Source: a virus
Taxonomy: Duplodnaviria > Heunggongvirae > Uroviricota > Caudoviricetes
Length of the DNA: 14,397 nt
IMG/VR virus record: IMGVR_UViG_2563366907_000012
Strand: one strand, 5' to 3'
Position numbers and translations under genes: made by a program. Numbering within the stretch: position 1 is the first letter of the stretch; each line of letters begins with the position of its first letter. The notes beneath the pieces were generated by a model. It saw only the letters and a program-made list of their open reading frames with translations, ran no database searches and had not been told where the DNA came from. Positions 2,015-14,397 of the stretch are shown here, in pieces.

Positions 2015-2287
2015 TTACCTCCAGATGCGTTGCTGGAATGTGCGGGACGGACGCGGTGGGCGTTCGGAGTAAGGAAGCCTGACGGAGATTATCCAGTGAC
2101 GATAATCGAGGCTGAGGGCTTTCTTAATCTCGTATCCGCGTCTGCGGTAGTTATGAATTAGCCATTCGGCCTGTTCTTCAGTACATGGTGGGTGTTGGTA
2201 CCAGTCGGTTTTAAATGCGTGTGAACGCCGCCCATGCCGGATGGCAAGGTCGGTATCAGAATTGTGAAATTTGGTTTTGTGCGCCAT
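2015..2287 (-). CDS. Hypothetical small protein (position of rem in Qin-type prophages)
   Basis: 90-aa ORF with ATG start. Ends 1 nt before the GTG start of the DUF968 ORF in a different frame. Weak Shine-Dalgarno; could instead be the 5' part of a frameshifted DUF968 gene. Confidence 0.35.
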   Translation of the reverse strand: MAHKTKFHNSDTDLAIRHGRRSHAFKTDWYQHPPCTEEQAEWLIHNYRRRGYEIKKALSLDYRHWIISVRLPYSERPPRPSRTFQQRIWR

Positions 2288-2454: not shown

Positions 2455-2610
2455 TTACTCCTCAGGTTCGTAAGCTGTGAAGACAGCGACCTCCGTCTGG
2501 CCGGTTCGGAGTCGTACCTCGCAGAGGTCTTTCCTCGTTACCAGTGCCGTCACTATGACGGTTAAACAGATGACGATCAGGGCGATTAACATCGCCTTTT
2601 GCTGCTTCAT
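2455..2610 (-). CDS. hokD: Hok-family type I toxin (HokD/RelF-like membrane peptide)
   Basis: Hand-translated as MKQQKAMLIALIVICLTVIVTALVTRKDLCEVRLRTGQTEVAVFTAYEPEE (51 aa), near-identical to recalled HokD. Below the ORF-track length cutoff. Confidence 0.9.
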   Translation of the reverse strand: MKQQKAMLIALIVICLTVIVTALVTRKDLCEVRLRTGQTEVAVFTAYEPEE

Positions 2611-2666
2611 AGCCTGCTTCTCCTTGACCTTTCGGTCCGTAAGAGGCTAATCTCTATGTGTCGCAT
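2607..2666 (-). CDS. Short leader ORF (mok-like) translationally coupled to hok
   Basis: ATG at 2666..2664 encodes MRHIEISLLRTERSRRSRL; its TGA overlaps the hok ATG (ATGA). The start lies in an inverted repeat TCTATG-CGACA-CATAGA. Much shorter than plasmid R1 mok, so tentative. Confidence 0.35.
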   Translation of the reverse strand: MRHIEISLLRTERSRRSRL

Positions 2667-2720
2667 AGATATGGCCTCAGATTAATGTTAAGCGTCTTGC
2701 AGGACGCGTAATGTTAACTG
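2624..2720 (+). ncRNA. Putative Sok-like antisense RNA with promoter, antisense to the hok mRNA leader
   Basis: TTGACC at 2624..2629 and TAATCT about 18 bp downstream on the plus strand, inside the hok 5' region and pointing away. Downstream hairpin GCGTC-TTGCAG-GACGC (2692..2707) is flanked by direct repeats TAATGTTAA (2683..2691, 2709..2717). Boundaries approximate. Confidence 0.3.
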
Positions 2721-2868
2721 GGGCTTTTCTCTATCTGCCTTTTGGTGTTCATGCCTGAGACAGATAGCCTCAAGCACCCGCAGTCATTCTACTTAACTAA
2801 GATTTCCCCGCAAACCGTTTTTGTCCGGCACAGTAAATATCCAACTAAACCAATGGCGTTCGCTGTAT

Positions 2869-5801: not shown

Positions 5802-6518
5802 TCACCGCTGCTGCTCTCTGGTGGCGGTAATATCCCGGAGAATATCCCTGTGTTTGTTCAGTTCCCGCAGCGCAGCACAGACTCGCTCCCACTTCTGGAC
5901 ATCACTTTTCGCCCGGCGCAGCTCGCGGTTAGCCACATGCAGCGATGGTAGAATCAGGTCATCTGCTTTCATTTCGGTGATCGATGGCTGTAACCTCACA
6001 ATGTCTTCCACGATTTCTGTTTTCATTTCTTCCTGTGCCATCATTTCCTGTACTGGTAACGCAACACCTGCTGGCTGAGGAAAGGCTTTACCATCGGTTT
6101 CCGCTACGGATGCAGCTTCCGGCTCTGCCGGTAAATCAGCGCCCGGTATGCAGTAACGAAATTTACCGCCCTGATTCACGCGAATCAGACGCCCTTTGCT
6201 GATTGCCATGGCCAGCGATGAATTCGCCCGGCGCGAGGTAATCCCGAACATCAGTGCCAGCTCATCCGCCGTTTGTGGGCCATGTTGTTCAATCGCCTCA
6301 GTCAGCATTTGCGCTGTCACTTTCGGTACCGGTGACACCGGTTCACTTTCACCAGCCTGAATCAGCCACCACATCGAACCCTTGTTATCCGCTTCACCGC
6401 GGCGCTTCAGTTTCCACAGTTCGTTGACCGCATCTTCACGGCTGATTCCAAGGCGGGCCGCCACTACCTGTGAAGAGGCTCTTTTCAGTGCTTTCAGTGC
6501 GTCAAATACGGTTTCCAT
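5802..6518 (-). CDS. Hypothetical prophage protein with two winged-helix-like repeats and a C-terminal coiled coil (238 aa)
   Basis: ATG with GGAGG 7 nt upstream. Two similar segments ([25 protein letters not shown]; [28 protein letters not shown]). Lies just downstream of the DnaC-like gene. Confidence 0.65.
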
Positions 6519-8277: not shown

Positions 8278-8703
8278 TTAGTGCATCACCACAGCATTCC
8301 CTGCCGGGCCGCCGCGATTCATCTGGTCATACAAAACAACCGCTGACGCAACAAAATCATCGACATCCTTCACCAGCCGATCCCTCCGTTCGACGATCTC
8401 ACGGTAATATTCAGAACTGTGGCTGCGCATACGGGCCACCAGCAGAGGCGGCATTGCCTTTTCGATCGCCGGTAACAGAGCCTGCATTTTTTCAACAGCA
8501 TCAGGGGTGTCTTTATCCAGCCAACGGAAAATTTTCTGGGTATTACGGGCCAGGGCTTCCGGATGGCTGTCGTCATACAGTTCCGGGAACGTCATTCCCA
8601 GCTCGAAATACGCTTTGGTAATTTTCGCAGCCGGTACTTTTTCGCCGTCCGGATGCGCCCAGACATTCATCGCCATGCGGATGTGTTCATGCTTGATTTT
8701 CAT
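8278..8703 (-). CDS. YdaT-family protein (cII-position regulator/toxin-like)
   Basis: Begins MKIKHEHI as recalled for Rac YdaT. 141 aa; start overlaps the cro-like stop (ATGA), matching ydaS-ydaT order. Confidence 0.65.
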   Translation of the reverse strand: MKIKHEHIRMAMNVWAHPDGEKVPAAKITKAYFELGMTFPELYDDSHPEALARNTQKIFRWLDKDTPDAVEKMQALLPAIEKAMPPLLVARMRSHSSEYYREIVERRDRLVKDVDDFVASAVVLYDQMNRGGPAGNAVVMH

Positions 8704-8915
8704 GAATCATTCTTTCCTTCGTTCGAGGTGCTATCCTGCTTCTTGTAAAGTTCTGGGTTGTATTTCAATTCACCGTTAGTAATTTCATCCAGTTCCATTG
8801 CGCGAAGTTTGGGAATAACTGCTTTCCACCGCACAACAGCCACATGTGAAATTCCAAGAGCCTCAGCTACTAGTCGCTTTTTTTTGAAATAGCGCAGAAC
8901 ATCATCTTTGAACAT
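8700..8915 (-). CDS. Cro-like DNA-binding protein (DicC/YdaS-type)
   Basis: 71 aa, divergent from the repressor, AGGAGAG SD 5 nt upstream. Central segment LVAEALGISHVAVVRWKAVIP fits a YdaS/Cro-type HTH. Confidence 0.7.
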   Translation of the reverse strand: MFKDDVLRYFKKKRLVAEALGISHVAVVRWKAVIPKLRAMELDEITNGELKYNPELYKKQDSTSNEGKNDS

Positions 8916-8944
8916 AAAACTCTCCTGTTATTTCGAGCAGAAGG

Positions 8945-9006
8945 GTAACAATAGTTACATAACAATGTCAACCATAGCAACATCACTTGGTAGTAACATT
9001 GGTTAC
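8945..9006. promoter_or_regulatory. Divergent immunity-region operators: two GTAAC-N4-GTTAC palindromes
   Basis: GTAACAATAGTTAC at 8945..8958 and GTAACATTGGTTAC at 8993..9006. The second abuts the repressor ATG at 9007, implying a leaderless or near-leaderless repressor transcript. Confidence 0.55.
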
Positions 9007-9681
9007 ATGAAAAACACTATCAGCGAACGTATTCGGAATCGTCGAAAAGACGTTGGATTAACCCAACAGCAGGTTGCGAAAGCAATCGGCATATCTCGTG
9101 TATCCGTAACAAAATGGGAAAATGGCTCTTCAAAACCTGACGGTGAGAATTTGTATCTACTGTCAAAATTGCTTTCCAAATCTCCTGAATGGATTCTTTA
9201 TGGAAAGGACTGTCACGATAAAACCGATGATCTGCGTCTGAATCAGTACCCTTACATTAGTGACAACATCGCCCGGTTGCCCGTTTTAACGTGGGAACAG
9301 GCTGGTTATTGGGATATGAGTTGTCCAGTAACCAAGATTCCTGGTATTAATAACTGGGTTGATGTCATGACAAAAACCGCTGAAAACTCTTTTTTATTGC
9401 ATGTTGAGGGAGATGCGATGACAAACTCTAACGGCCTCCCAACCATCCCCGACGGATCTACCGTGCTGATCACACCATGCTCAAGTAACATTAGAGAACT
9501 GGTGGGAAAAATAATCTTAATCCAATTGGAAGGAACGCCAAACGTAACACTAAAAAAAGTTGCGATTGACGGACCAAACATCTATTTGTTGTCACTGAAT
9601 CCGCTTTACAAACCCATCGAACTGAATGGTGGTTACACCATTAAAGGTAAAGTTTCACAAATACATCAATACTTAGACTGA
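9007..9681 (+). CDS. CI/C2-type prophage repressor (N-terminal XRE HTH, C-terminal S24 LexA-like domain with Ala at the catalytic Ser position)
   Basis: MKNTISERIRNRRKDVGLTQQQVAKAIGISRVSVTKWENG aligns with the recalled P22 C2 N-terminus. C-terminal domain has VEGDAM where LexA/CI have GxSM, with the VTLKKV Lys retained. Upstream TTG (8908) and ATG (8965) starts rejected. Confidence 0.85.
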   Translation: MKNTISERIRNRRKDVGLTQQQVAKAIGISRVSVTKWENGSSKPDGENLYLLSKLLSKSPEWILYGKDCHDKTDDLRLNQYPYISDNIARLPVLTWEQAGYWDMSCPVTKIPGINNWVDVMTKTAENSFLLHVEGDAMTNSNGLPTIPDGSTVLITPCSSNIRELVGKIILIQLEGTPNVTLKKVAIDGPNIYLLSLNPLYKPIELNGGYTIKGKVSQIHQYLD

Positions 9682-9686
9682 GTCAG

Positions 9687-9711
9687 AACCCGCATTCATT
9701 GCGGGTTTTTT
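9687..9711 (+). terminator. Rho-independent terminator after the repressor gene
   Basis: ACCCGCA-TTCAT-TGCGGGT stem-loop followed by TTTTTT, 6 nt after the stop codon. Confidence 0.7.
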
Positions 9712-9743
9712 ATGCCCTCAAATGTACCTTTTGCAACATTGTA

Positions 9744-9770
9744 TTGACTCGAAAGGTAACTCTTGTTACC
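9744..9770 (+). promoter_or_regulatory. Putative PL-like promoter/operator for the dicB-type operon
   Basis: TTGACT at 9744..9749 followed by a third operator-type palindrome GGTAAC-TCTT-GTTACC (9755..9770). The -10 element is not clear. Confidence 0.45.
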
Positions 9771-9953
9771 TTAACAACATACCAACCCACACCGCCCCAC
9801 AGAACGCAGGGAAATACTTCGAGTTACCCGGCAGTGGTCAGGGGTTAAGTAGCCAGCCCGAGGCGTAAGAACATGACGGCAGGGTTCAACTTTAATAACT
9901 ATGCAGCAGGTTTTTGTTCCGCTACCCCGGCGTTAAGGGGAAATGAGGTCAGC

Positions 9954-10109
9954 ATGGATACTATCGATCTTGGCAACAGCGAATCTCTGGTATGTGGCGT
10001 GTTCCCCAACCAGGACGGTACGTTCACCGCGATGACGTATACCAAAAGCAAAACGTTTAAAACCGAAAATGGTGCCCGTCGCTGGCTGGAAAGAAACTCA
10101 GGTGAGTGA
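9954..10109 (+). CDS. ydfA: YdfA-like small protein (51 aa)
   Basis: ATG with GAGG 5 nt upstream; MDTIDLGNSESLVCGVFPNQDGTFTAMTYTKSKTFKTENGARRWLERNSGE. Length and position match ydfA of the Qin dicB operon. Upstream extension of the 78-aa ORF rejected. Confidence 0.7.
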   Translation: MDTIDLGNSESLVCGVFPNQDGTFTAMTYTKSKTFKTENGARRWLERNSGE

Positions 10110-10827: not shown

Positions 10828-10880
10828 TTTCTGGTGACGTTTGGCGGTATCAGTTTTACTCCGTGACTGCTCTGCCGCCC
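10828..10880 (+). ncRNA. dicF: DicF small regulatory RNA (ftsZ-targeting antisense sRNA)
   Basis: The 53 nt TTTCTGGTGACGTTTGGCGGTATCAGTTTTACTCCGTGACTGCTCTGCCGCCC match the DicF sequence as I recall it, followed by TTTTT, between ydfC and dicB. Confidence 0.85.
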
Positions 10881-11431: not shown

Positions 11432-11523
11432 AACAGTTCCGTAATAAATATCCGGTTTCATTCTTATATGCCAGCAATGGCAGGGATTTGTTCATCCTTA
11501 AATCTGTCATGAGGTTAAAACAA

Positions 11524-14397
11524 ATGAGTAAAGTCTTTATTTGCGCCGCTATTCCTGACGAACTGGCAACAAGGGAAGAAGGCGCTGTGGCTGTAGCCAC
11601 AGCCATTGAAGCTGGCGACGAACGCCGTGCTCGAGCAAAATTTCACTGGCAATTCCTGGAACATTATCCGGCTGCTCAGGACTGCGCTTATAAATTTATT
11701 GTCTGCGAGGATAAACCTGGCATACCCCGCCCTGCCCTCGATTCATGGGATGCTGAATATATGCAGGAAAACCGCTGGGATGAGGAGTCTGCTTCTTTTG
11801 TCCCGGTTGAGACTGAATCCGATCCGATGAACGTCACTTTTGACAAGCTGGCCCCTGAAGTACAGAACGCTGTCATGGTTAAGTTCGACACATGTGAAAA
11901 CATCACCGTTGATATGGTTATTAGCGCACAGGAATTGTTGCAGGAAGACATGGCAACATTCGACGGACATATCGTTGAAGCGTTGATGAAAATGCCAGAA
12001 GTTAACGCCATGTATCCGGAGCTTAAGTTGCACGCCATTGGGTGGGTTAAGCATAAATGTATTCCTGGTGCTAAATGGCCCGAAATTCAGGCAGAGATGC
12101 GCATCTGGAAAAAACGTCGCGAAGGTGAACGCAAGGAAACCGGAAAATACACGTCTGTTGTTGATCTCGCCCGCGCCAGAGCCAATCAACAGTACACTGA
12201 AAATTCAACAGGAAAAATCAGCCCGGTCATTGCTGCCATTCATCGCGAATACAAGCAGACATGGAAAACACTGGATGACGAACTGGCCTACGCTCTCTGG
12301 CCTGGTGATGTGGATGCCGGAAACATTGACGGCAGCATCCATCGCTGGGCAAAAAAAGAAGTTATCGACAACGACCGCGAAGACTGGAAGCGTATCTCGG
12401 CATCAATGCGCAAACAGCCTGATGCCCTTCGCTACGACCGCCAAACTATTTTTGGCCTTGTCCGTGAGCGTCCGATCGACATTCACAAAGATCCCGTAGC
12501 ACTGAACAAATATATCTGCGAATACCTGACGACAAAGGGCGTGTTTGAGAATGAAGAAACAGACCTGGGCACTGTTGATGTTCTCCAGTCATCAGAAACA
12601 CAAACTGATGCAGTGGAAACTGAGGTATCTGATATCCCAAAAAATGAAACCGCGCCGGAAGCTGAACCATCTGTAGAGCGTGAGGGGCCGTTCTATTTCC
12701 TCTTCGCAGATAAGGACGGAGAAAAATACGGTCGCGCAAACAAACTCTCTGGTCTGGATAAGGCACTGGCTGCTGGCGCCACTGAAATCACAAAAGAAGA
12801 ATATTTTGCCCGAAAAAATGGCACATACACGGGCTTACCGCAAAATGTAGATACCGCTGAAGATTCAGAACAACCAGAGCCGATAAAAGTTACCGCTGAC
12901 GAAGTAAACAAAATTATGCAGGCAGCCAATATCAGCCAGCCTGACGCCGATAAGTTGCTTGCTGCATCACGTGGTGAATTTGTTGAAGGGATTAGTGACC
13001 CGAATGATCCGAAATGGGTTAAGGGGCTCCAGACCCGCGATTCTGTGAACCAGAACCAGCATGAATCGGAACGGAACTACCAAAAAGCGGAACAAAACAG
13101 TCCAAATGCGTTACAAAACGAGCCAGAAACGAAACAGCCTGAACCAGTAGCGCAACAGGAAGTGGAAAAAGTCTGCACCGCCTGCGGTCAGACCGGCGGC
13201 GGCAACTGCCCTGATTGTGGCGCGGTGATGGGCGACGCAACATACCAAGAAACATTCGATGAAGAGTATCAGGTTGAAGTTCAGGAAGATGATCCGGAGG
13301 AAATGGAAGGCGCTGAACATCCACACAAGGAGAACACTGGCGGCAATCAGCATCACGATAGCGATAATGAAACTGGCGAGACGGCAGATCACCCAATTAA
13401 GGTGAACGGTCATCACGAAATCACATCCACCAGCAGGACGTGTGACCATCTAATGATCGACCTTGAAACCATGGGAAAAAATCCTGATGCCCCGATCATC
13501 TCAATAGGTGCAATATTTTTCGATCCGCAAACCGGAGATATGGGACCGGAATTTAGTAAGACTATCGATCTGGAAACTGCTGGCGGAGTCATTGATCGGG
13601 ACACCATTAAATGGTGGCTTAAGCAATCACGCGAAGCGCAATCTGCCATTATGACCGATGAAATCCCGTTAGATGATGCACTGTTACAATTGCGAGAATT
13701 TATCGACGAAAACTCCGGTGAATTTTTTGTTCAGGTTTGGGGAAATGGAGCCAACTTCGACAACACGATTTTGCGCCGTTCATACGAACGGCAGGGGATC
13801 CCCTGCCCGTGGCGTTACTACAACGATCGCGATGTACGCACAATCGTTGAGCTGGGGAAAGCCATAGACTTCGATGCCAGAACGGCTATTCCATTCGAAG
13901 GTGAGCGCCATAATGCGCTTGATGACGCCCGTTACTGGGAACTGGAAAAAGATGAAGTGATAAGCCCACTGCCGGTTTATGCCTCAACCTTTGAAGGCTG
14001 GGACTCCCCTGAACGTAGTGCCTTCCCACTGCAACTGTTTGGTTTCCATTACAAATCCCGTACGCACTCGACCTACGGCAACATTGATGTCCTGAAGGCA
14101 GCCTGCCGTCAGGAAGTGTGGATCAACCCTATTGACGCACAGAAACGTGGGATTGCCAACGGCGATATGGTGCGGGTGTTTAACCATCGTGGCGAAGTTC
14201 GGCTACCAGCCAAAGTGACACCACGCATTCTCCCTGGGGTTAGCGCTATGGGCCAGGGAGCCTGGCACGAGGCCAATATGTCTGGCGATAAAATCGACCA
14301 CGGCGGCTGTGTGAATACGCTAACCACTCTGCGCCCTTCACCACTGGCGAAGGGAAACCCGCAGCACACTAATCTGGTCGAGATCGAAAAAATATAA
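11524..14397 (+). CDS. Large chimeric ORF: YdfE/RecE-like prophage protein (zinc ribbon plus DEDDh 3'-5' exonuclease domain) fused in frame to the C-terminus of a DmsA/YnfE/YnfF-family molybdoenzyme
   Basis: ATG at 11524 with GAGGT SD (track start 11488 is TTG). Features in order: CTACGQTGGGNCPDCG zinc ribbon (~13174..13221), acidic/His-rich linker, Exo I DLETMG, Exo II GNGANFD, Exo III HNALDDA (~13441..13930). From ~14010 on, FPLQLFGFHYKSRTHSTYGN ... GDMVRVFNHRGEV ... PSPLAKGNPQHTNLVEIEKI reads as a molybdopterin dinucleotide-binding domain. Stop is at the last base of the window. Confidence 0.7.
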   Translation: MSKVFICAAIPDELATREEGAVAVATAIEAGDERRARAKFHWQFLEHYPAAQDCAYKFIVCEDKPGIPRPALDSWDAEYMQENRWDEESASFVPVETESDPMNVTFDKLAPEVQNAVMVKFDTCENITVDMVISAQELLQEDMATFDGHIVEALMKMPEVNAMYPELKLHAIGWVKHKCIPGAKWPEIQAEMRIWKKRREGERKETGKYTSVVDLARARANQQYTENSTGKISPVIAAIHREYKQTWKTLDDELAYALWPGDVDAGNIDGSIHRWAKKEVIDNDREDWKRISASMRKQPDALRYDRQTIFGLVRERPIDIHKDPVALNKYICEYLTTKGVFENEETDLGTVDVLQSSETQTDAVETEVSDIPKNETAPEAEPSVEREGPFYFLFADKDGEKYGRANKLSGLDKALAAGATEITKEEYFARKNGTYTGLPQNVDTAEDSEQPEPIKVTADEVNKIMQAANISQPDADKLLAASRGEFVEGISDPNDPKWVKGLQTRDSVNQNQHESERNYQKAEQNSPNALQNEPETKQPEPVAQQEVEKVCTACGQTGGGNCPDCGAVMGDATYQETFDEEYQVEVQEDDPEEMEGAEHPHKENTGGNQHHDSDNETGETADHPIKVNGHHEITSTSRTCDHLMIDLETMGKNPDAPIISIGAIFFDPQTGDMGPEFSKTIDLETAGGVIDRDTIKWWLKQSREAQSAIMTDEIPLDDALLQLREFIDENSGEFFVQVWGNGANFDNTILRRSYERQGIPCPWRYYNDRDVRTIVELGKAIDFDARTAIPFEGERHNALDDARYWELEKDEVISPLPVYASTFEGWDSPERSAFPLQLFGFHYKSRTHSTYGNIDVLKAACRQEVWINPIDAQKRGIANGDMVRVFNHRGEVRLPAKVTPRILPGVSAMGQGAWHEANMSGDKIDHGGCVNTLTTLRPSPLAKGNPQHTNLVEIEKI

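Follow-up and report, generated by a model that had tools for sequence, protein, structure and literature searches.

A Qin-like lambdoid prophage of Escherichia coli very likely has, in its immunity region, the operators of a lambda-like CI-type repressor in the form of three copies of one palindrome, GTAAC-N4-GTTAC; the repressor very likely starts at the ATG at position 9007 and is probably translated from a leaderless mRNA. The window, that is, the whole stretch of DNA analyzed (14,397 bp), is such a prophage. The three sites exist, are not due to chance, keep their positions among relatives, and have half-sites that are linked to the recognition helix of the repressor; a Shine-Dalgarno sequence ahead of the repressor gene is absent. 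What we infer is that the repressor binds these sites, which promoters are used, where the transcript starts, and in which direction autoregulation works.

Genes, palindromes, and promoter elements of the immunity region

Leftward in the region run YdaT-like and P22-Cro-like genes, and rightward a gene encoding a repressor with HTH_3 and Peptidase_S24 domains (Pfam), followed by ydfA-ydfB-ydfC-DicF-dicB. The Cro-like gene (8700 to 8915, minus strand; 71 amino acids; Pfam PF14549 P22_Cro, E value of 2.9e-16) has a good Shine-Dalgarno sequence, AGGAG. The repressor gene (9007 to 9681, plus strand; 224 amino acids) is followed on the same strand by an intrinsic terminator at 9685 to 9711, with a U-run and a hairpin of −16 kcal/mol (z score of −4.3). 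According to the RefSeq annotation of an identical locus, ydfA (9954 to 10109, plus strand; DUF1391, E value of 8.8e-28) is the first gene of the ydfA-ydfB-ydfC-DicF-dicB series, in which the DicF RNA lies at 10829 to 10880. Between the cro ATG at 8915 and the repressor ATG at 9007 there is a gap of 91 bp (8916 to 9006), the length given in the first-pass annotation.

That annotation had described an inverted repeat of 14 to 16 bp occurring twice in this gap and once downstream of the repressor terminator, ahead of ydfA. All three copies are exact matches to GTAAC-N4-GTTAC at these places. Site 1 (GTAACAATAGTTAC; 8945 to 8958), which is OR1-like, covers parts of the cro promoter, namely its spacer and −10. 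Site 2 (GTAACATTGGTTAC; 8993 to 9006), which is OR3-like, abuts the repressor ATG with a gap of 0 nt, its last base being 9006, just as had been stated. Site 3 (GTAACTCTTGTTAC; 9756 to 9769), which is OL1-like, lies between the terminator and ydfA, where it falls in the ydfA promoter's spacer and −10. Sites 1 and 2 are palindromes of 14 bp, and site 3, the sole site extending that far, reaches a 20-bp palindrome (9753 to 9772; AAGGTAAC-TCTT-GTTACCTT) and has a position weight matrix (PWM) score of 21.9 bits. Two weaker candidates had not been noticed, nor had the annotated start at 8965 or a shift of about one helical turn relative to lambda, which are discussed below. The candidate middle operator, OR2-like (TCAAC-CATA-GCAAC; 8968 to 8981), is degenerate in the window, with 0.2 bits by PWM. 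The candidate second left operator, OL2-like (GTACC-TTTT-GCAAC; 9724 to 9737), lies upstream of the −35 and is, with 11.2 bits, the fourth-best PWM match across the whole window.

On the minus strand, the −35 of the cro promoter, TTGACA (plus strand, TGTCAA), is found at 8966 to 8971, and the predicted −10 of this PR-like leftward promoter, TACCCT, is found at 8942 to 8947, overlapping the left flank of site 1. The block ATGTCAACC at the cro −35 is kept in five close lineages, with variable flanking bases; the −10 reads TACCTT in most relatives, and columns −65 to −60 relative to the repressor start hardly vary among 29 lineages. For the early promoter that points rightward, the equivalent of dicBp or PL, the −35 TTGACT (9744 to 9749, plus strand) and a predicted −10 TACCTT 17 nt past it (9767 to 9772, plus strand) were read from the sequence; K-12 has TAATCT at the latter place. 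The two promoters share a conserved −35, TTGACA or TTGACT, followed 17 to 18 nt on by a TACCYT hexamer. The predicted −10 of a PRM-like maintenance promoter, TAACAT (8994 to 8999, plus strand), lies inside the left half of site 2. A consensus scan of 8600 to 10100 with a threshold of 9 of 12 called no sigma-70 promoter, and the promoters were therefore assigned by eye and by conservation alone. The cro −10 was not called because only three of its six bases match the consensus (three to four in the proposed −10 hexamers overall); the same scan missed the obvious terminator, too.

Positions of the probable operators are fixed among relatives

We compared 29 distinct relatives with 42 to 100% protein identity to the repressor, from lineages of Escherichia, Salmonella, Hamiltonella, Kosakonia, Yersinia, Erwinia, Klebsiella, Edwardsiella, and others. 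In all 29, site 1 occupies −62 to −49 and site 2 occupies −14 to −1 from an invariant ATG; the DNA between the sites diverges, and the positions are fixed. In 7 of 10 lineages, the middle site, at −39, is the third-best PWM match; its right half reads GTTAC in most of the 29, with A-27 and C-26 invariant. Relatives that keep the early-left region carry a further site 6 nt after TTGACN. In K-12 dicBp and in 7 of 10 lineages, TTGAC precedes the operator by 6 nt, the OL arrangement is kept in 8 of 10, and a second site 32 to 35 bp upstream of OL1 (32 bp here) is found in 8 of 10, with exact matches in L007 and L094. Among 41 near-identical loci there are nine polymorphic positions, none of which falls in an operator or in the coding sequence that begins at 9007; sites 1 and 2 have no polymorphism at all in this set. 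The OR/OL-like layout proposed at the outset thus finds support in the fixed site positions in 29 relatives, in the overlap with conserved −35 sequences, and in the helix-linked half-sites described below.

A probably leaderless repressor mRNA

Neither candidate start codon of the repressor has a Shine-Dalgarno sequence. The calculated pairing with the anti-Shine-Dalgarno sequence is −3.0 kcal/mol for the ATG at 9007 and +0.9 kcal/mol for that at 8965, against a median of −2.65 kcal/mol for random ATG triplets and −7.4 and −8.1 kcal/mol for the neighbors cro and ydfA. The hexamer TAACAT, at −13 to −8, lies 7 to 8 nt upstream of the ATG at 9007 and predicts a transcript start at −2 to +1 (about 9005 to 9007). 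Its T-13, A-12, and T-8 are invariant in the 29 lineages; as site 1 has a central N4 just as conserved as that of site 2, the conservation of T-8 is not specific for a −10. The start codon is ATG in 29 of 29 distinct lineages and never GTG or TTG; Brock et al. in 2008, as cited in PMC8630535, are said to have found that leaderless initiation needs a 5′-terminal AUG. K-12 dicA has TAGCAT at the equivalent place, 7 nt before its mapped start at −3. By differential RNA sequencing, the leader of dicA is 3 nt long and ymfK and racR have none (PMC4681348, Table S3), and paaR2 was found to be leaderless by 5′ RACE and N-terminal sequencing (PMC8630535). Given the missing Shine-Dalgarno sequence, TAACAT at −13 to −8, and the leaderless dicA, ymfK, racR, and paaR2, we consider it likely that the repressor mRNA is leaderless. 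The leaderless start suggested from the single sequence hence gains comparative support, to which the operator-flush ATG and the syntenic dicA also contribute.

The alternative that survives best accepts the sites as operators and has the repressor made mainly from a leadered transcript, begun farther upstream in the intergenic region or at an establishment promoter in or beyond cro, with the AUG used without a Shine-Dalgarno sequence. Lambda also makes a leadered cI mRNA, from PRE; the maintenance promoter has no recognizable −35, the promoter scan called none, and TACAT-like hexamers occur around −28 to −23 in many relatives. Nevertheless, this is unlikely. Nothing in the region from −25 to −15 is conserved across the lineages, an internal AUG without a Shine-Dalgarno sequence is a poor initiator, and mapped starts lie 3 nt before the AUG in the syntenic dicA of K-12 and at the AUG in ymfK and racR. 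Moreover, the direct contact of operator and ATG, with 0 nt between them in 29 of 30 lineages of the GTAAC type, would be hard to explain with a leadered transcript.

The probable start codon at 9007

The start chosen by PGAP is an in-frame ATG at 8965, which overlaps the −35 of the cro promoter and gives a protein of 238 amino acids, against 224 amino acids from the ATG at 9007. If that start were used, site 2 would fall within the gene and would encode Ser-Asn-Ile-Gly-Tyr instead of being an operator at the 5′ end. The start is annotated in RefSeq, the 238-amino-acid form is the commoner one in public records (at least 1,000 contigs, versus 304 for the 224-amino-acid form), and five close lineages retain an open frame that begins near site 1, with SNIGY conserved. 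We regard it as very unlikely all the same. The constant spacing of 48 bp is a multiple of 3, so that the frame is kept trivially, and the conserved parts of the extension are DNA elements, Met-Ser-Thr corresponding to the −35 (ATGTCAAC) and SNIGY to site 2. Otherwise, the 14-codon extension has 28% amino acid identity, versus 73% in the next 80 codons, and it lacks codon periodicity, with nucleotide identities of 0.55, 0.47, and 0.43 at the three codon positions, compared with 0.75, 0.87, and 0.47 in the gene. Its polymorphism has the density of noncoding DNA (4 of 34 positions in 8959 to 8992, whereas none of 104 positions varies in the coding part that begins at 9007). L007 has GTG at the codon equivalent to 8965, and gene callers drift to other starts there. 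Relatives with 42 to 52% identity begin at the conserved Met, which is invariant in the protein alignment, and the sequence of one distant relative, L016, has an in-frame TAG in the extension region. The ATG at 8965 lacks a Shine-Dalgarno sequence as well. Taken together, the polymorphism, the missing codon periodicity, and the in-frame stops in relatives favor the ATG at 9007.

Nonrandom sites and their link to the recognition helix

The window contains exactly three copies of GTAAC-N4-GTTAC, versus 0.01 expected, and none of 200 dinucleotide shuffles of the window reached three sites. In four 50-kb pieces (200 kb) of a host chromosome carrying this prophage there was no exact match to the motif; base composition alone would give about 4.6 exact sites in a genome of 5.2 Mb and 0.0007 in a stretch of 825 bp. 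When viral contigs were scanned, this repressor family was found alongside in 41 of 41 loci with three core sites. In contrast, 78 unrelated viral loci (686 kb), which were chosen for one extended site each and all lack this repressor, had just one further core site, 4.7 kb from the first.

The recognition helix SRVSVTKWE of the repressor pairs with the half-sites GTAAC/GTTAC. In mEp390, the helix NRVTVTGWE pairs with GTAGG/CCTAC at −62, −39, and −14 and after TTGACA-N6, the right half of its middle site being CCTAC as in its own half-site. In K-12, the DicA helix SHVSVSQWE pairs with TTAGT/ACTAA. In these sequence comparisons, each recognition helix goes with a half-site of its own, and the positions on the common scaffold stay the same. 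DicA binds Oc in vivo, and one base change abolishes this binding; Oc is bound alone, with the equivalents of the middle site and site 2 unbound, and Oc-bound DicA represses dicC and activates dicA (PMC3441716). That the palindromes are chance repeats, or sites for a host factor or for the Cro-like protein alone, is extremely improbable: the Cro-like protein probably shares the sites of the repressor, but chance is excluded by the window count and the host background, and another protein is contradicted by site clusters that stand in viral contigs solely beside this repressor family, by a half-site that follows the recognition helix of the repressor at fixed positions, and by the experimental link between the homologous DicA and Oc (PMC3441716).

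Proposed switch and comparison with known systems

We propose that a repressor dimer binds 5-N4-5 palindromes with the core GTAAC-N4-GTTAC. On site 1 it would shut off the leftward cro and YdaT-like genes, and on site 3 it would do the same to the rightward ydfA-DicF-dicB operon. Site 2 would hold the −10 TAACAT of a weak maintenance promoter; since it contains this −10 and ends at the ATG, the mRNA would begin no more than about 2 nt from the AUG and be leaderless. When much repressor is present, its own synthesis would be blocked at site 2, as at OR3 of lambda. The weaker sites at 8968 to 8981 and 9724 to 9737 probably complete a set of three plus two operators through cooperative binding, and the Cro-like protein probably acts on the same sites. 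A dimer on the middle site, centered at −32.5, would cover the −35 region, and activation as at lambda OR2 is therefore not simply transferable; as the center is not near −42, we do not claim the OR2-type geometry.

The design is a known lambdoid one, with the CI/Cro immunity features of divergent repressor and cro genes, intergenic dyads over the promoters, and a second cluster at the early-left position. As in lambda, cI and cro diverge, three sites are spaced 23 to 25 bp apart, a second cluster lies at the early-left promoter, and the repressor has an N-terminal helix-turn-helix and a C-terminal S24 domain. The AUG of lambda cI is the 5′ end of the maintenance transcript from PRM (cited in PMC4681348 and PMC8630535). 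The operators here are 14 to 20 bp long with 5-N4-5 symmetry, compared with 17 bp in lambda, and their centers lie at −7.5, −32.5, and −55.5 from the start, compared with about −19, −42, and −66 computed for the lambda OR sites. The distance from the three OR sites to the presumed start is thus some 10 bp shorter than that from the lambda sites to PRM. Unlike in lambda, the early-left operon has no N gene, and the catalytic Ser of the repressor is replaced.

Among the closest known arrangements is dicC-dicA-dicBp of the K-12 Qin prophage, with a leftward cro-like gene, a rightward repressor gene, and then ydfA-ydfB-ydfC-DicF-dicB. The K-12 scaffold likewise has a strong site, the 8-N4-8 Oc, beside the cro-like gene and a dicBp site 6 nt after TTGACC, and site 3 has the position of this DicA-type site. 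The systems differ in the gap between operator and ATG (0 nt here versus 2 nt for Oa of dicA), in the half-sites and helices given above, and in the repressors: DicA has 135 amino acids and no S24 domain, whereas the repressor here keeps the S24 domain, with Ala for the catalytic Ser. The two proteins have about 33% overall identity and align through the ERIR...SxVSVxxWE region. Compared with that of K-12, the ydfA leader has about 100 additional nt. Its extra conserved part, 9812 to 9880, which was considered as a put-like antiterminator RNA or a known RNA family, had no Rfam match above noise and a weak consensus fold (−10.5 kcal/mol) almost without covariation, and there was no similarity to the HK022 PL/nun region. 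Also rejected, as a homologue of the antirepressor Rem, was a 90-amino-acid open reading frame at the rem position (2015 to 2287, minus strand), which did not align with K-12 Rem.

Compared with P22 immC, the N-terminal domain is closest to that of P22 C2, and the Cro-like protein belongs to the P22_Cro family; the length before the ERIR motif is presumably the same in C2. The neighboring genes differ, and P22 operators are 18 bp long with a different sequence. In the regions of paaR2/ydaS (CP-933P), racR (Rac), and ymfK (e14), too, the repressor gene and a cro/ydaS-like gene are transcribed divergently, about 90 to 97 bp apart, and a YdaT-family gene follows cro. Their repressors are unrelated or distantly related to this one, and their operators differ from GTAAC-N4-GTTAC, those of e14 being GTAC-based palindromes. 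The operator sequence was not found described in the literature searched: a full-text search with four operator strings matched no paper, and the ZF40 literature concerned Aca2, not cI operators. By megablast against phage genomes, the immunity region is found in no sequenced phage at the DNA level, and the flanks alone match.

Repressor protein and implications

The repressor is similar to lambda CI (chain 3bdn_A; E value of 2e-14), the N-terminal domain of P22 C2 (1.3e-12), and the 434 repressor (4e-5). The candidate identity with YmfK of e14, which also has 224 amino acids, was rejected, as the two align over the C-terminal domain only, at 26% identity. In place of the S24 catalytic Ser there is Ala (Ala137; codon 9415 to 9417), VEGDAMTN being aligned to VEGNSMTA of lambda. 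The Ser-Lys dyad for self-cleavage is hence incomplete, with the nucleophile replaced; the cleavage-site Ala-Gly (EQAG/YW) and the Lys (LKKV) are present. Ala is found in 44 of 47 close loci and is fixed in lineages at 100%, 88%, and 70% identity. Ser-to-Ala mutants of LexA and CI lose cleavage, and the repressor is predicted not to be cleavable by RecA.

A more tentative, and in our view doubtful, possibility is to read the two features jointly, so that site 2 would be operator, −10, and leaderless 5′ end in one and the switch of the E. coli/Salmonella clade would have lost RecA-dependent self-cleavage. If so, the repressor would gate its own synthesis directly at +1 and not via OR2 activation and OR3 repression, and this three-in-one site would have kept its 0-nt spacing through changes of operator specificity and in no fewer than 29 lineages. 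The dicBF cell-division inhibitors would then be under an SOS-blind repressor, and release would come from Cro bistability or an antirepressor alone.

The understanding of lambdoid switches is unchanged by these results. What they provide, for a repressor predicted to control the DicF/DicB cell-division inhibitors, is the operator code AAGGTAAC-N4-GTTACCTT, an operator map, and the probable true start; the ATG at 9007 corrects a 14-codon overextension that is widespread in public annotation. The fixed scaffold, with sites at −62, −39, and −14 and another following TTGACN-N6, has seen the exchange of at least three repressor/operator specificities and is useful for the prediction of immunity groups and the design of orthogonal repressor-operator pairs. 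The prophage is carried by 702 of 5,426 complete E. coli genomes (about 13%).

Probable operator sites around the repressor gene

A motif search of the whole window found three exact GTAAC-N4-GTTAC palindromes, at 8945-8958 (site 1), 8993-9006 (site 2), and 9756-9769 (site 3), the places around the repressor gene named in the first-pass annotation, and nowhere else; with one mismatch allowed, the sole extra match was at 6153. The chance expectation for the window is 0.01, and none of 200 shuffles reached three sites. Base composition predicts about 4.6 per 5.2-Mb genome (0.0007 per 825 bp), and four 50-kb samples of one prophage-carrying host chromosome held no exact match. Sites 1 and 2 lie in the 91-bp gap between the ATG of the cro-like gene (8915, minus strand) and the repressor ATG (9007), with site 2 ending at 9006, directly before the latter. 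Site 3 lies beyond the repressor terminator, a hairpin at 9685-9709 with a U-run after the stop codon (-16 kcal/mol, z -4.3), and ahead of ydfA (DUF1391), which starts at 9954. The observation of three sites is confirmed, and its interpretation as operators with a leaderless repressor is supported. As a lambdoid immunity region of the P22-C2/DicA type, the locus is ordinary and well conserved; it is of value mainly for an annotation correction and for a scaffold with exchangeable specificity. We found no description of the GTAAC-type operator specificity in the literature that could be searched.

We compared relatives with repressors of 88, 87, 70, 66, 52, 45, and 42% identity, together with phages ZF40 and mEp390 and a Klebsiella phage, and added 20 further loci from a species-genome scan. 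Counted from the conserved Met, strong sites stand at exactly -62 to -49 and -14 to -1 in 29 distinct GTAAC-type lineages; in the 30th, L160, the ATG-proximal site is separated from the ATG by 3 nt, while in mEp390 it is again flush. The inter-site DNA diverges freely, except for the cro-promoter -35 element and a middle site. A set of 41 near-identical loci comprises 10 haplotypes with nine polymorphic positions in total. All of these fall within 8916-8944 and 8959-8992, and none in either operator, cro, or 9007-9110. Downstream of the repressor, 8 of 10 lineages have a strong site 6 nt past TTGACN and a second site 32 to 35 bp upstream. Scanning viral contigs with AGGTAAC-N4-GTTACCT returned 120 loci, 42 of which carry the repressor family; 41 of these have all three core sites, and the exception (locus L074) is cut by the locus end. 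The other 78 have one site each, save one with a second site 4.7 kb off.

The strongest argument that the sites would act as operators is the co-variation of half-site and recognition helix on a fixed scaffold. The mEp390 repressor (41% identity, helix NRVTVTGWE) is accompanied by two copies of GTAGG-N4-CCTAC, one at -62 and one at -14, by a CCTAC half-site spanning -30 to -26, and by GTAAG-ATAT-CCTAC 6 nt past TTGACA. K-12 DicA (helix SHVSVSQWE) is accompanied by the operator Oc, TTAGT-CATA-ACTAA, by TTAGC-ATTA-GCTAA ending 2 nt ahead of the dicA ATG, and, at the early promoter dicBp, by TTAGT-CATG-GCTAA 6 nt past TTGACC. DicA binds Oc in vivo, and one base change abolishes binding (PMC3441716). 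Oc was the only site bound by DicA in K-12 in vivo (PMC3441716), so occupancy of site 2 by the window repressor is a prediction, although the core of site 2 is a perfect match.

Scored with a position weight matrix derived from the relatives, the whole window has as its fourth-ranked match a candidate OL2-like site at 9724-9737 (GTACC-TTTT-GCAAC; 11.2 bits). A candidate OR2-like site at 8968-8981 (-39 to -26; TCAAC-CATA-GCAAC) has 0.2 bits in the window. The latter position is the third-best match in 7 of 10 lineages; most of the 29 lineages have GTTAC as the right half, and mEp390 has CCTAC. It is therefore a real family feature, degenerate in the window. The layout thus appears to comprise two OL sites, ahead of ydfA, and three OR sites, in the cro/repressor gap, with centers 23 and 25 bp apart. 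The proposed OR/OL-like layout holds, but its tally missed these two sites, with which the region is closer to lambda than suggested. Another weak operator-like sequence, within the repressor gene (9485-9498, GTAACATTAGAGAAC; 8.8 bits, fifth-best in the window), is probably due to chance.

Predicted promoters

The putative leftward cro promoter has TTGACA at 8971 to 8966 and TACCCT at 8947 to 8942, separated by 18 nt; site 1 would fall in its spacer and -10, giving cro mRNA a predicted leader of roughly 20 nt that includes AGGAG. Site 3 would likewise fall in the spacer and -10 of a putative rightward ydfA promoter (TTGACT at 9744-9749, 17 nt, TACCTT at 9767-9772), which is the arrangement of K-12 dicBp, position for position. 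The maintenance promoter probably uses TAACAT (8994-8999), within site 2, as its -10, with no recognizable -35. A consensus promoter scan called none of the three. Compared with lambda, all OR sites in the window lie about one helical turn nearer the presumed start, so lambda-type activation from the middle site cannot be assumed.

Repressor start codon and probable leaderless expression

PGAP starts the repressor at ATG 8965, 14 codons ahead of 9007, and public databases hold both forms (238 amino acids on at least 1,000 contigs, 224 on 304). Comparison of relatives favors 9007. The Met at 9007 is invariant in the protein alignment, and amino acid identity is 28% in the 14-codon extension versus 73% in the next 80 codons. 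The extension has no codon periodicity among the relatives, and its conserved residues coincide with DNA elements: MST with the -35 (ATGTCAAC) and SNIGY with site 2. It is polymorphic at 4 of 34 positions, matching non-coding DNA, whereas none of 104 positions varies in the gene. In more distant relatives the protein begins at the conserved Met, and one locus, L016, carries an in-frame stop upstream of it. In PGAP and most public records, the repressor start appears to be placed 14 codons too early (8965-9006). The ZF40 cI is similarly over-extended, from a GTG overlapping cro, and the repressor of Klebsiella phage ST13-OXA48phi12.2 is annotated 4 codons short of an operator-abutting ATG.

Neither ATG has a Shine-Dalgarno sequence, as had been claimed for 9007: the pairing energy with the anti-Shine-Dalgarno is -3.0 at 9007 and +0.9 at 8965. 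Random ATG triplets have a median of -2.65, and cro and ydfA reach -7.4 and -8.1. The repressor start codon is always ATG among the lineages examined. TAACAT at -13 to -8 predicts a transcript start at -2 to +1; K-12 dicA has TAGCAT at the equivalent place, 7 nt ahead of the mapped start. That start is at -3, and those of ymfK and racR are at the AUG itself (PMC4681348), and 5′ RACE and protein sequencing have shown paaR2 to be leaderless (PMC8630535). We consider leaderless expression of the repressor likely.

Replacement of the S24 nucleophile

Among solved structures, the repressor is nearest to lambda CI (both domains, E 2e-14) and the P22 C2 N-terminal domain (E 1.3e-12). Its S24 nucleophile, the catalytic Ser of the G(D/N)SM motif, is replaced by Ala (VEGDAMTN, codon 137 of 224, GCG at 9415-9417), which lines up with Ser149 of lambda CI; it retains both the Lys and the Ala-Gly cleavage site. 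Of 47 close loci, 44 have this Ala, as do the relatives of 88% and 70% identity (the latter from Salmonella). Ser is found in the sister lineages of 87% and 66% and in all distant relatives, including those of 42 to 52%. The replacement predicts a repressor that is not cleavable by RecA and hence a prophage not inducible by the SOS response, recalling K-12 DicA, where the whole domain is gone. A 90-amino-acid ORF (2015-2287, minus strand) between a DUF968 gene and hokD lies where K-12 Qin has its Rem antirepressor, but we rejected it as Rem-like, as it has no detectable similarity to Rem.

Prophage context and the ydfA leader

The segment 8650-10000 is present over at least 80% of its length in 702 of 5,426 complete E. 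coli genomes, with at least 99% identity in 699. Strain ECAMP047 carries it at the Qin locus, adjoining rspA and ynfA, in the RefSeq order YdaT-family protein, Cro/CI regulator, LexA-family protein, ydfA, ydfB, ydfC, dicB, and ydfD. Pfam matches at the locus are P22_Cro, HTH_3 with Peptidase_S24, YdaT_toxin, and DUF1391. The YdaT-family gene (8278-8703, minus strand) has the position of cII in lambda. There is a 4-nt overlap between its start and the stop codon of cro, an arrangement also seen in Rac (ydaS-ydaT) and CP-933P. Rfam matches are DicF (10829-10880, plus strand, 76.7 bits), within the operon predicted to be repressed from site 3, and sok antitoxin RNA (2608-2779, minus strand, 106.7 bits), adjoining hokD. 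The immunity region had no DNA-level match among the sequenced phages of the collection searched, and the best-matching phage repressors share 42% identity. An ORF of more than 969 amino acids (11488-14397, plus strand) continues past the window end; its counterpart in the related locus L008 has YdfE_N, YdfE_C, and Rv2179c-like domains. The ECAMP047 prophage, otherwise identical, has a deletion of this region and directly adjoins rspA.

The ydfA 5′ leader contains a block of about 70 to 110 nt at 9812-9880 (…CGAGTTACC…GGGTTAAGTAGCCAGCCCGAGGCGTAAGAACATGACGGC…). It matches no Rfam family and does not resemble the HK022 putL region, and its fold is weak, with almost no covariation. It is near-invariant in relatives down to 66% repressor identity and absent from K-12 Qin; e14 and ZF40 have a related AAGTAGCC motif past their left promoters.
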